DNA of 64,000 nucleotides from Nitrosopumilaceae archaeon (lineage in GTDB: Archaea > Thermoproteota > Nitrososphaeria > Nitrososphaerales > Nitrosopumilaceae): the NCBI GenBank assembly GCA_965200155.1, contig CBDATR010000010.1:288001-352000 (forward strand), written 5' to 3'. Of this stretch, positions 6,368-57,796 are shown piece by piece. Both the position numbers and the translations under genes were made by a program. The notes under the pieces were generated by a model that was not told the origin of the DNA, did no database searches, and saw only the letters and a list, made by a program, of their open reading frames with translations. Every line of letters begins with the position of its first letter. Position 1 is the first letter of the stretch.

Positions 6368-6412
6368 GAGGTTCCGACACTCAGATGCATGTAAAAATGT
6401 TCGCCTGCCAAA

Positions 6413-7067
6413 TCGCGGTGTCGATGGCAAACACTTGGCAGCCACAGCCGAATCAGCGGGAATGATAGCCTCCCATTCTACGGAGCACCGCAAGATGCTG
6501 GAAAAATCAACCGGTTAAAGGATCGACTCTCATACTTGAAGGGTCGAAGTCGGCAACTATTAGAGAAGCAGATTCGCCGGTTGTGTAAGAAAGGTGGCAA
6601 CGTTGCAACGAACCGGATGAACCACATCATCAAACAAGTCGCGGACGGTGTAGACTCGGTCGGTGTCGAGAACTTCTCAGTAAAACCCATGACCAGTCAC
6701 GGCGGCAACCGGAAACACGATATTAATGGAATGATGTGACACAATCGTGTTGGTGGGTTCCTGAGAAAGTTGGAACAAAAGTGCAAGGAGAAAGGAATCC
6801 ATCTAATCGCGACTCACAGTCACCACACGAGTCAGAAATGCTTTGTATGTGGGAATATTGACAAGAAAATATGAATATTATGGGCAAATTCATGTGCCCA
6901 GTGTCCGCAAGATACTCACGCGGGCGTAAATGCCGCGCGAAATATCATGCAACGGGAGGCGGAGCAAGTCATCCTGTGTTGATGGGGCGGAAATCCGACA
7001 TAACATGAACATGATGACGATCGTGTGAGGTTTCGGCGCCACGAAAAACCATAGGTGAAGGTTATGG
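6413..7067 (+). pseudogene. tnpB: TnpB (IS200/IS605 family) C-terminal remnant, copy 1
   Basis: VGVEN RuvC-II, TSQKCFVCG zinc ribbon, NAARNI; stops and frameshifts; near-identical to 31224-32040. Confidence 0.8.
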
Positions 7068-22608: not shown

Positions 22609-23451
22609 CTACGCCTGCAAAGCCTGGGGTGCGGTCCAAGCCTCGTTTATCTCCTGAAATACGCTCAGGTTATGCATAGCCGCGGTTCCTATTTGGACTG
22701 CTGTAGCGCCCACCTGCAGAAATTGAAATACGTCTTTTGCATTGCATATGCCACCACACCCCATAATGGGTATGGTATTGCCATGTCTCACTCTTATGTC
22801 ATGTATGGTTCTCAGGGCTATGGGTTTTATGGGCTTGCCTGAGAGTCCGCCGGTACCGTGACTGAGCAGTGGCCGCCCTGCATCATCCAGTGCTAGGGCA
22901 GGTACAGTGTTTATCGCCGTTATTCCGTCTATGCCAGCCTTTATTGCTACGTCGACGCCGGGCATCATGCTTGGTCCAACCTTGGCAAAGACGGGCGTGG
23001 TGTGGGCAACTTTTTTTGCCGTAGACACTATATCCTGTACTAACTTCGGATTGTCTCCTACCTCCCGACCCAGATGCTCTGCATGGGGACATGACAAGTT
23101 CAGCTCAAATCCCGCAACACCATCAAACAGGGGTATCATTTCGGCAAAATCGTCGGGGGAGGATCCCGCCATGCTCACTATTACGGGAAAACTTGGTCTT
23201 CCCAGGGCGCGGGCAAACTGGTGGGCTCCGCCATTATTCAGGCCTATGGCGTTAACATAACCGCCTCCATCCACCGGTACAAAGTTGGGCTCTGGATTGC
23301 CCTCACGCGGATTCACGGTAAGTGACTTTGTAACCGTTGCACCCGCGCCACTCTTGTATACCTCTTCTAGACTCTGTGGTGTATTTCCCCGCAGACCCGA
23401 TGCCAGGATTGCGGGCCCCTCTAGCGTCAGCGGACCTAAGTGTATGGACAT
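22609..23451 (-). CDS. pyrD: Dihydroorotate dehydrogenase (family 1)
   Basis: ASG, NAIGL, ELNLSCPH, AINT, GGLSG, GCGGI, VQIGTA. Confidence 0.92.
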   Translation of the reverse strand: MSIHLGPLTLEGPAILASGLRGNTPQSLEEVYKSGAGATVTKSLTVNPREGNPEPNFVPVDGGGYVNAIGLNNGGAHQFARALGRPSFPVIVSMAGSSPDDFAEMIPLFDGVAGFELNLSCPHAEHLGREVGDNPKLVQDIVSTAKKVAHTTPVFAKVGPSMMPGVDVAIKAGIDGITAINTVPALALDDAGRPLLSHGTGGLSGKPIKPIALRTIHDIRVRHGNTIPIMGCGGICNAKDVFQFLQVGATAVQIGTAAMHNLSVFQEINEAWTAPQALQA

Positions 23452-23531
23452 TGCCGTTAATACCACGCTTATTTACCAAATAAATCTCAAATGACTAGCG
23501 TCAGCGGACCTAAGTGTATGGACATTGCCGT
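23421..23531. repeat. 37-bp direct repeat flanking a 37-bp insert (unit 2), covering the pyrD start
   Basis: ctagcgtcagcggacctaagtgtatggacattgccgt is identical at 23421-23457 and 23495-23531. Confidence 0.9.
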
Positions 23532-31223: not shown

Positions 31224-32040
31224 ACCATAAGTCCTTGCCCATGGTTTTTCGTGGCGCCGAAACCTCACACGATCGTCATCATGTTCATGTTATGTCGGAT
31301 TTCCGCCCCATGAACACAGGATGACTTGCTCCGCCTCCCGTTGCAGGATATTTCGCGCGGCATTTACGCCCGCGTGAGTATCCTGCGGACACTGGGTACA
31401 AATGAATTTGCCCCATAATGTTCGTGTTTTCTTGTCAATATTCCCATACACAAAGCATTTCTGGCTCGTGTGGTGACTGTGAGTCGAGATTAGATGGATT
31501 CCTTTCTCCTTGCACTTTTGTTCCAACTTTCTCAGGAACCCACCAACACGATTGTGTCGCATCATTCCATTAATATCGTGTTTCCGGTTGCCGCCGTGAC
31601 TGGTCATGGGTTTTAGAGAGGTTCTCGACACCGACCGAGTCCACACCGTCTGCGACTTGTTTGATGATGTGGTTCATCCGGTTCGTTGCAACGTTGCCAC
31701 CTTTCTTCCACAACCGGCGAATCTGCTTCTCTAATAGTTGCCGACTTCGACATCCAGTACCGTGATTCCCAGTGAAGATGAGGCTCTGGGCGAATCTGCT
31801 TCTCTAATAGTTGCCGACTTCGACATCCAGTACCGTGATTCCCAGTGAAGATGAGGCTCTGGGCGAATCTGCTTCTCTAATAGTTGCCGACTTCGACCCT
31901 TCAAGTGTGTGAGTCGACCCTTTAACCGGTTGATTTTTCCAGTATCTTGCGGTGCTCCATAGAATGGGAGGCTATCATTCCCGCTGAGTCGGCTGTGACT
32001 GCCAAGTGTTTGCCATCGACACCGCGATCAACGCCGGTTT
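31224..32040 (-). pseudogene. tnpB: TnpB remnant, copy 2, 5'-truncated at an IS5 element
   Basis: GVDRG RuvC-I, TSQKC, NAARNI; homologous to 6413-7067. Confidence 0.8.
31716..31897. repeat. Mini-array: three 36-bp repeats and two identical 37-bp inserts (unit 3)
   Basis: Repeats at 31716-31751, 31789-31824 and 31862-31897; single uninterrupted copy at 6543-6578. Confidence 0.92.
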
Positions 32041-32041
32041 G

Positions 32042-33159
32042 TAGTTTGTTGCATAACTGACTTTGATAGAACACAGGTTCGCTATGTCGTGATCTAATTT
32101 TCTACGCTGCAACCGCGTCCACCTATTTGTTGTACTTGGCTACCCTCATTGCGATTTCCTGTACTATTCCCATCTTCGCGACTATACTACGTGCCCGAAT
32201 ACTCGCTTGAATGAGAACACCGCTTTATTATGATATCAATTGCCCATCGCTTGTCATGCCGCCTTCCAGTTGTTTGTTTTCGGTTTTACCCTCTGACATG
32301 AGGCAGTTGTACACTTTTTGGCTTTCGCCCAGCTGATCCCGGACTGCAATCCCCGACGCTCACCTTTCCCTTGCATGATGGAATTCAGCCAAACCGGAAA
32401 CTCTGCTGGAGTTCGCGATTCTGACAAATATCATGTTATTCCTGTACGCGTATGCCCATCCGTTAGTAGCCCCTTGTACGCGTGCTTTTGTTCATCAGAC
32501 ATTTGTAATGTCAGGCGTGACTTGCCAACATCCGGCTGCTTCTAATTTTAATCTGGTAATTTCAGCAGCCCACCAGCTCCCTTAGTATCGGTGGGTCGCC
32601 GGTTTGCTCATCCGTGACTGCGGTTGCATGGATTAGTACGCTTTCCTCATCCACCAGCACGTGCAGCTTGCTGAATCTCCGTTTCACCTTCCATTCGTAG
32701 TCAATCCATTCACCACAGCTACACATTTCCAGTTCGATGGAGTCGACAATCATGGTCCATGTTTTATCGCGATTGGTACAGGCAACTAGGCGAGTCGCCA
32801 TTATCTATGTTGACATCAAGGTCTTGCATACGCCGGCATATTGTAGAGTAGTGTGAGGATTTGTATCCGTTGTGCATCATAAAAAAAGCCGGATAGCTAT
32901 GTCTGTTTCTCATATTTGTTGCGACATACATGGCGCCGACAACAATTATCTGGGCATCCAAATGGCGCACCCTCCACGAGGTATTGGGCCCAAATACATT
33001 CCCACTGGACATATTCGACGTTGTCAATAAATATTATCAAGTTTGTTGAAATATTCTCAGAAATTAATGCTTGGATCTAAGACTAACAAAGTGAGCAGGA
33101 ATTCGTAAACTTTCTCATCAGTGCAATTTTATTACATGATTGAGTTATGCAACAAACTA
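32042..33159 (-). mobile_element. IS5-family element (IS903-like ends), decayed transposase
   Basis: 17-bp perfect TIR tagtttgttgcataact; fragments GEW...KLHVLVD and FKRVFG. Confidence 0.8.
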
Positions 33160-38756: not shown

Positions 38757-38864
38757 GGGCGCCGAATCGTTTCGTTGCCCGTCTCAGTAATATGCCATAT
38801 CCTTGTAACGAACCATGATTGGAACAAAGGGCGCCGAATCGTTTCATTGCTAGTCTCAGTAATA
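38757..38864. repeat. 36-bp duplication (3 mismatches) flanking a 36-bp insert (unit 4)
   Basis: Repeats at 38757-38792 and 38829-38864; empty site at 23941-23976. Confidence 0.9.
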
Positions 38865-51146: not shown

Positions 51147-51255
51147 GGTAAATAAAGGGGCGATCATTCCCGCCCAATTAGGATAGATTACTTTGAGCCC
51201 TTTGCAAGCCTCCTGAAAGGTAAACAAAGGGGCGACCATTCCCGCCCAATGAGGA
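51147..51255. repeat. 37-bp duplication (3 mismatches) flanking a 35-bp insert (unit 5)
   Basis: ggtaaataaaggggcgatcattcccgcccaattagga vs ggtaaacaaaggggcgaccattcccgcccaatgagga. Confidence 0.85.
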
Positions 51256-57685: not shown

Positions 57686-57796
57686 ATTGCTGCCCCCATC
57701 TATTCGGGATGCGACATGTGGGTTGTTTTTGGCCTGCGCGGCTCTCTTTGGGCTGGCGGATTGCTGCCCCCATCTATTCGGGATGCGACATGTGGG
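57686..57796. repeat. 37-bp direct repeat flanking a 37-bp insert (unit 6)
   Basis: attgctgcccccatctattcgggatgcgacatgtggg is identical at 57686-57722 and 57760-57796. Confidence 0.92.

Follow-up and report, generated by a model that had tools for sequence, protein, structure and literature searches.

A repeat-insert array in a tnpB pseudogene fragment

This study concerns a small array of alternating repeats and inserts within a tnpB pseudogene of a Nitrosopumilaceae archaeon (GenBank assembly GCA_965200155.1). The array lies in a stretch of 64,000 nucleotides (contig CBDATR010000010.1, positions 288,001 to 352,000; C10:288001-352000 of the assembly), which was analyzed as a whole and is referred to as the window; positions given without a contig are window positions. 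Two fragments of the tnpB gene were identified in it. Copy 1 occupies positions 6412-7052 on the plus strand, and was identified by its alignment to copy 2 and by a single match to the array repeat. Copy 2, which comprises the 3′ half of the gene and its downstream end, extends over positions 31241-32042 on the minus strand, and its assignment is based on a domain match, on its frameshifted frames and on alignments to copy 1 and to a homologue on contig C9. The domain match comes from a minus-strand open frame of 118 amino acids (31290-31646), which corresponds to the Cas12f1-like TNB domain (PF07282, E 1.6e-13). Both copies are frameshifted and both lack the 5′ half, and they are therefore pseudogene fragments with no intact IS200/IS605-family tnpB frame.

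Copy 2 hosts the array, which has the composition R-S-R-S-R and covers positions 31716-31897. The repeat R is 36 nt and the insert S is 37 nt long, and every copy of each is identical. The three copies of R are found at positions 31716-31751 (R1), 31789-31824 (R2) and 31862-31897 (R3); they are exact 36-mers of tnpB coding sequence to which no strand is assigned, and they represent duplicates of the target, R1 being equivalent to the single copy present in empty sites. The two copies of S are spacer-like, with the minus strand as the probable spacer sense, and lie at positions 31752-31788 and 31825-31861, the latter belonging to the duplicated unit. The boundaries between R and S can be placed without ambiguity, since the bases in the flanks are not those at the ends of S. 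Tandem Repeats Finder describes the array as 2.5 copies of a period of 73 with 100% matches and a score of 364. A search of the window revealed a fourth exact copy of R in tnpB copy 1 on the opposite strand (6543-6578), in exact agreement with the first-pass annotation of this DNA, which had counted one 36-mer there and three in the array, separated by two identical 37-bp inserts. Beyond the two copies of S no further one was found in the window, even with up to three mismatches allowed, and 100 dinucleotide shuffles of the window gave no match to R and none to S. S does not form a hairpin: its minimum free energy is -0.1 kcal/mol, and 193 of 200 shuffles fold equally well or better.

The alignment of the two tnpB copies shows a single clean gap of 146 nt, which is exactly two R+S units, between flanks whose identity is ~96% (95.9% over 513 nt, 95.8% over 167 nt). 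On contig C9, a tnpB homologue of greater divergence carries one R equivalent, lacks the 146 nt and hence provides a second empty site. The insert, whose presence in intact homologues was to refute the first-pass reading, is found in neither of the two related copies that cover the site, and the earlier proposal of an insertion with a 36-bp target duplication is borne out by both of them. The further claim that the repeat is tnpB coding sequence and not a repeat of the CRISPR type is upheld by the PF07282 match and by the placement of R in the frame, where, by our reading of the translation, it specifies a stretch of the linker that joins two nuclease motifs. No close copy of the tnpB fragment was found in the 40 relatives searched, and the exact 36-mer R was unmatched in collections of metagenome contigs and genome contigs. 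The tnpB fragment is immediately followed in the window by a 38-base dispersed repeat (32043-32080), which is present in ~35 copies in the genome and marks the cut-off of copy 2.

The insert is a copy of host DNA

The source of the 37-mer, which the first-pass annotation had proposed to look for, was found in the same genome. When S was compared with the whole assembly (2.38 Mb, 51 contigs), one other match was obtained, with 37 of 37 bases identical at C24:59620-59656. This segment encodes part of the acidic N-terminal extension of a protein of 230 amino acids, residues 96-226 of which match Ribosomal_S11 (PF00411, E 3.7e-33). S is a copy of host DNA, taken from the ribosomal protein S11 gene. 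In the minus-strand reading, the source is directly preceded on its 5′ side by TTC. The protospacer adjacent motif (PAM) selected by the Cas4/1 fusion of Geobacter sulfurreducens is TTN (PMC6547450), which the TTC flank fits.

A resident type I-G CRISPR system has the same dimensions

The genome contains a genuine CRISPR array on contig C9, with 289 repeats of 36 nt, 287 of which are identical. The most frequent length among its 288 spacers is 37 nt (101 spacers), followed by 36 (85), 38 (63), 35 (16) and 39 nt (15), and eight spacers have other lengths. R therefore has the length of the genuine repeat and S the commonest length of a genuine spacer. Directly upstream of the array lie the intact adaptation genes, which encode a Cas4g/Cas1g fusion of 549 amino acids (full-length match to NF049935, E 1.1e-213, 710.7 bits with a cut-off of 560) and a Cas2 (E 9.6e-9); both the Cas4 and the Cas1 domain of the fusion were confirmed with Pfam. 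Genes for Cas3g, its extension protein, Csb2 and Cas7g follow downstream of the array, and by its gene content the system is assigned to type I-G.

With the model for the large subunit (Csx17/Cas8g) no match was obtained in this genome, nor in three of the four congeners that possess the same Cas4/1, G001 being the only one that matches. The absence of a large subunit was considered as a cause of the ectopic events described below; since three of the four congeners with the same Cas4/1 are likewise unmatched, the lack of a match is uninformative. Upstream of cas7g, where the large-subunit gene is expected, fragments of an IS5-type transposase are found (C9:98700-100800; DDE_Tnp_4, HTH_Tnp_4). 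Beside the CRISPR locus, at C9:103400-110000, lies a defence island with DUF1156 and DUF499 anti-phage-associated proteins and a DrmD-like SNF2 helicase, and a solitary degenerate copy of the genuine repeat with three mismatches is located near a contig end (C43:128228-128263).

Like insertions occur throughout the genome

In a genome-wide scan, exact direct repeats of 30-44 nt that occur in isolation were recorded at spacings of 40-140. At spacings of 71 to 75, 53 pairs were found (3, 21, 15, 8 and 6, respectively), with 72 as the commonest spacing, whereas the median at the other tabulated spacings (40-70 and 76-90) was one pair per spacing; the exceptions are a few tandem-repeat families at spacings 82, 86, 120 and 123. 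The number of isolated pairs rises to 63 if up to three mismatches are allowed. For all further comparisons a set of 52 events was used, which consists of the 53 pairs without two that belong to a protein tandem repeat (C10:347801 and C10:347832) and with the tnpB locus added. The spacing distribution of the ectopic events is not different from that of the genuine array (chi-square p 0.17).

The duplicated sequences of the 52 events are all different, and so are the inserts. A source copy elsewhere in the genome, with 94-100% identity, was found for 24 inserts. In these 24 self-derived events the insert is 35-39 nt long and the duplication measures 36 nt in 19 events, 37 nt in four and 33 nt in one, with ambiguous boundary bases assigned towards 36. 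Over all 52 events, the raw exact-run lengths are 36 (18 events), 37 (20), 38-40 (9) and <36 (5). The duplication is thus fixed while the insert varies, and the total therefore ranges from 71 to 75. For 20 of the 52 events an empty paralogue is present in the same genome, because many of them sit in multi-copy elements. One such element constitutes a hot spot, as its sequence received integrations separately in at least eight copies and in some of them repeatedly (C10:6482, C10:83012, C13:25587, C24:97261, C24:460667, C24:500843, C31:2837 and C51:60), and ~45 empty copies of it remain in the genome.

The proportion of self-derived inserts differs greatly between the two kinds of loci, with 24/52 among ectopic inserts and 0/288 among genuine spacers (p 1e-22). 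Such an excess is expected if self-targeting is lethal in a processed array and tolerated where the repeat cannot be processed. The search of the 288 genuine spacers against their own genome gave two matches, one of 28 bases to the ectopic insert at C25:4760 and another of 17 bases. The insert at C25:4760 overlaps genuine spacer 58 by 26 exact bases with an offset of 11 bases, and another ectopic insert overlaps genuine spacer 136 by 22 bases with two mismatches, so both kinds of insert sampled the same DNA. Spacings divisible by three are more frequent among ectopic events than in the genuine array (27/52 vs 101/287, p 0.029); within long open frames the in-frame excess is not significant (8/27 vs 3/25, p 0.18).

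Six events are located in the window. In addition to the tnpB array, exact units are found at positions 31-140, 23421-23530 and 57686-57795, and two units of the same build with three mismatches between the repeat copies at 38757-38864 and 51147-51254; these units have a duplication of 36 nt, an insert of 36-38 nt and a spacing of 72-74. The flank and the repeat start of the unit at 57686 comprise eight contiguous bases of the genuine leader-repeat junction. Outside the window, a mini-array of three repeats lies at C9:70397-70583, in the stretch that separates cas4/1 from cas2, and its two different inserts are both copied from elsewhere in the genome. The window furthermore contains three long near-perfect tandem repeats of coding type between 58584 and 62093, with periods of 18 (54 copies), 78 (11 copies) and 126 (13 copies).

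The target sites share a weak motif

The junction halves of the unambiguous sites reveal a weak motif, with C or G at -5, A or G at -3, G or C at +1 and G at both +4 and +11, with no G at +5. A weight matrix was constructed from 15 other distinct ectopic sites, from which the tnpB site had been left out. The tnpB site scores 9.89 with this matrix, and among 100,000 random sites only 0.015% attain as much. When the empty copy 1 is scored in the same way, its true position comes first of ~600, with 10.64 compared to 4.65 for the next position. The genuine leader-repeat junction falls into the top 0.5% of random half-sites when scored with the ectopic motif, a figure that concerns a weak motif at the junction, R as a whole being unlike the genuine repeat. 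The two halves of the tnpB site score 6.56 on the minus strand and 3.33 on the plus strand, and the higher minus-strand value agrees with the orientation suggested by the TTC flank.

Public reads and related genomes

Contigs that span the junctions from R to S and from S to R are present in public sequencing runs of two studies, as became apparent when the reads were checked along the lines suggested in the first-pass annotation. Positions 31722-31789 were recovered in both runs (X1 and X2) and positions 31760-31818 in X1. The label of the one run names the organism and that of the other a sponge metagenome, and one of the two may be the sample of the assembly itself; the genome encodes an archaeal AmoA (E 1.7e-115), and the runs that contain the stretch include sponge metagenomes. 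In a metatranscriptome run no RNA contig crosses the R-S junctions, and the depth is 0 in the bins that cover 31742-31809. An empty allele of copy 2 was sought in the reads and rejected: the only joints that skip the 146 nt are one RNA contig of low depth and a single read of run X9, and the skipping joint is a path through R between the two tnpB copies, because the right side of the contig carries seven letters of copy 1. No clear polymorphism of copy 2 was seen in the reads.

The Cas4g/Cas1g family scored above cut-off in five of the 31 genomes searched, including the congeners G005, G006, G008 and G001. Outside the CRISPR locus, 400 kb of G005 contained no isolated repeats at spacings 40-140, whereas ~9 are expected at the density of the present genome, and 300 kb of G006 contained two at spacing 72, both of them within repetitive coding repeats, whereas ~6.6 are expected. 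The same script detected the genuine arrays of G005 and G006. Within the parts sampled, the accumulation of these insertions is peculiar to the present genome.

The second unit

Since the two copies of S are identical and have identical boundaries, it is very unlikely that they represent independent captures. The first-pass annotation had attributed the second unit to slippage or recombination of the 73-bp unit, a presumed origin that has precedents in the same genome, among them the adjacent identical spacers 160 and 161, the only such pair in the genuine array, and at least three other mini-arrays with clear tandem identical units. Two tandem identical units are found at C31:2838 (region C31:2827-3010), three at C24:472906-473190 and five, together with one different spacer, at C9:44440-44836, and the loci C24:382915-383170 and C33:4381 are probable further cases. 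Tandem identical units occur at ~6 of ~62 mini-array loci (four of them clear) and in one of the 287 adjacent pairs of the genuine array (p 1.5e-4). Replication misalignment between direct repeats is the accepted account of the duplication and deletion of spacer-repeat units in arrays (PMC8047081). This known process would explain the second identical unit of the tnpB array, as it does spacers 160 and 161, but duplicates are far commoner among the mini-arrays than they are in the genuine array.

Discussion

The array in tnpB copy 2 very probably arose by off-target (ectopic) integration of a spacer by the host type I-G Cas4/1-Cas2 complex, giving a locus of the kind termed neo-CRISPR, followed by duplication of the unit. 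The complex would have taken up 37 bp of host chromosomal DNA belonging to the S11 gene, a fragment that was probably selected next to TTC. Two staggered strand transfers 36 bp apart would then have taken place in the dead tnpB gene, at a site resembling the preferred junction motif, and the filling of the gaps would have duplicated the 36 bp to give R-S-R. In a last step the 73-bp unit would have been doubled to yield R-S-R-S-R; misaligned replication or unequal recombination involving the identical copies of R is the most likely route.

Several observations weigh against this interpretation or limit what can be built upon it. The anatomy, the empty sites, the source of the insert, the matching geometry, the intact adaptation genes, the family of like events and its target motif are observed, while the catalysis by Cas4/1-Cas2, the order of the steps, the route of unit duplication and the absence of processing are inferred. 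Aligned in register, R and the genuine repeat agree at 9 of 36 positions whichever orientation is used, no more than expected by chance. The comparison of the 288 genuine spacers with their own genome gave no usable protospacer; spacers 1-150 gave no protospacer among GenBank phages and only related CRISPR arrays among 80 family genomes, while spacers 151-288 were searched against their own genome only. TTN was found on one side of 7/24 self-derived inserts, where ~3.3 are expected (p 0.037), and therefore either PAM selection is weak or the PAM differs. In both runs the R-S piece is covered ~1.8 times as deeply as the unique flank (31.1 vs 17.5 in X1 and 146.7 vs 80.4 in X2), with ~2.2 estimated for two units and ~1.2 for one; as a value from 31-mer contigs this ratio leans towards two S units and is not a count of them. 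Simple slippage does not account for the excess of tandem units in the mini-arrays. Lastly, the seven bases that adjoin the duplicated segment (31898-31904), in the minus-strand reading, are the last seven of the genuine CRISPR repeat, and a terminal match of at least seven in any of eight comparisons was reached by 0.058% of 200,000 random sites. This match may be a coincidence, and we do not rely on it because its strand is opposite to the canonical attack at the repeat end and because the heptamer is conserved coding sequence in the tnpB family.

A Cas-independent and hitherto undescribed process that adds ~72 nt, by combining a short genomic copy with a compensating target duplication, would account for 72 as the commonest spacing (21/53 pairs) and sits well with the weak PAM selection. 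We nevertheless regard it as highly unlikely, as the total is not constant: duplications are held at 36-37 nt, inserts range from 35 to 39 nt, and the total runs from 71 to 75. Against it, too, stand the agreement of the spacing distribution with that of the resident array, the overlap of one insert with a genuine spacer by 26 exact bases, the score of the genuine leader-repeat junction, which reaches the top 0.5% under the ectopic motif, and the lack of a hairpin in the insert. If instead template switching during replication or microhomology-mediated repair had copied 37 nt of the S11 gene and produced a tandem duplication, the CRISPR dimensions would be coincidental. Slippage does produce tandem duplications, and source and target share a short interrupted similarity at one junction (three bases, then a gap); usable microhomology is present at neither junction, however, and there is no reason why such an event should give exactly a 36-bp duplication and a 37-bp insert or recur at ~50 loci with a common target motif and only at spacings 71-75, so that we consider this explanation extremely unlikely.

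An artefact of assembly or sequencing, in which reads of the S11 gene were joined chimerically into a tnpB repeat, deserves consideration as the region is repetitive, with two tnpB copies, and as one contig of the RNA run is indeed a chimera that passes through R from the flank of copy 2 to that of copy 1. The presence of the junction contigs in runs of two studies at a depth above that of the flank, together with ~50 further loci of the same precise architecture, 20/52 of which have empty paralogues, renders its probability next to negligible. It is hardly conceivable, too, that the locus is a working new CRISPR array, whose processed transcripts direct interference with the S11 gene or its regulation. 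The TTC flank of the source would license targeting if the PAM is TTN, and two reports have put forward off-target integration as a way in which new arrays arise (10.1101/148544; PMC6698737), but a guide that worked against a ribosomal gene, which is essential, should kill the cell. Moreover, R lacks the 8-bp hairpin of the genuine repeat, which folds with -7.4 kcal/mol (z -2.4) compared to -2.8 kcal/mol (z -0.6) for R. The 9/36 agreement of R with that repeat, the identity of the two spacers and the lack of any RNA contig across the R-S junctions in the metatranscriptome run likewise do not fit a functional array. As a product of ectopic integration the mini-array is probably inert, judged by its sequence features, and its self-matching spacer would be harmless because R is neither related to the genuine repeat nor endowed with the hairpin of the latter.

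Off-target integration by Cas1-Cas2 that gives rise to neo-CRISPR loci was reportedly described by Nivala, Shipman and Church in 2018 in Nature Microbiology. In Escherichia coli, off-target integration reportedly needed artificially raised levels of the adaptation genes, and circumstantial evidence was presented for two other species (10.1101/148544); it has also been suggested that such integration may seed new arrays (PMC6698737). The tnpB array shares with the neo-CRISPR loci of these two sources the spacer-sized insert and the repeat-length duplication outside an array. Compared with what these texts describe, the present case is natural, concerns an archaeon and a type I-G Cas4/Cas1 fusion, and has an identified source and identified empty sites, and it is accompanied by ~50 sister events with a common target motif, in several of which the units are tandemly amplified. 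The kind of event is thus already known, and its natural scale appears to be unreported, since no report of many natural off-target integrations in one genome was found in open-access text.

Canonical adaptation by the Cas4/Cas1-Cas2 module of a type I-G (formerly I-U) system, such as that of Geobacter sulfurreducens, is comparable in the gene family of the fusion, in spacers of ~36-37 bp and in the TTN-type flank, which the source of the present insert also has (PMC6547450; PMC10504553). In contrast to that module, the target here is not the leader-repeat junction and PAM selection is weak (7/24), and whereas the module favoured plasmid DNA when placed in E. coli, about half of the present inserts are self-derived. 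Ectopic acquisition in Streptococcus thermophilus is similar in that integration bypasses the leader-proximal repeat, but the site is a genuine internal repeat of the array in that species (PMC7999890) and unrelated coding DNA here. A likeness also exists to the target-site duplication of transposons and casposons, in which staggered strand transfer and gap repair duplicate the target (casposase, PMC6977970). The inserts in our genome, unlike a casposon, are 35-39-bp samples of many unrelated sequences and not one element, and the 36-bp duplication has the length of the CRISPR repeat.

Taking the ~50 recent and mostly perfect integrations over 2.4 Mb together with their virtual absence from the sampled parts of two congeners, we think it likely that the integrase of this archaeon shows unusual promiscuity and works as an insertional mutagen across the genome. 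On this reading, about half of the integrated fragments would have been copied from its own chromosome, some of the integrations would lie in frame within open reading frames, and several would have expanded into small arrays, either through additional integrations or through amplification of the unit. CRISPR adaptation would thus carry a mutational cost to the host genome, including in-frame insertions of 24-25 residues in genes.

At the tnpB array, a clean case from nature, each element has been identified: the empty site, the spacer's source, the enzyme resident in the genome and an array of matching geometry. The set of events gives the intrinsic target preference of the type I-G integrase away from the leader, and since the spacing of 36-37 bp between strand transfers is kept at targets unlike the repeat, it is apparently set by the complex and not by the repeat sequence. 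The proportion of self-derived inserts, 24/52 compared to 0/288, provides a direct measure of the autoimmune pruning of the real array. If the proposed interpretation is correct, the genome would be a natural record of the capture and integration sites of Cas4/1-Cas2 where autoimmunity does not filter them, and a live example of the birth of new CRISPR arrays.

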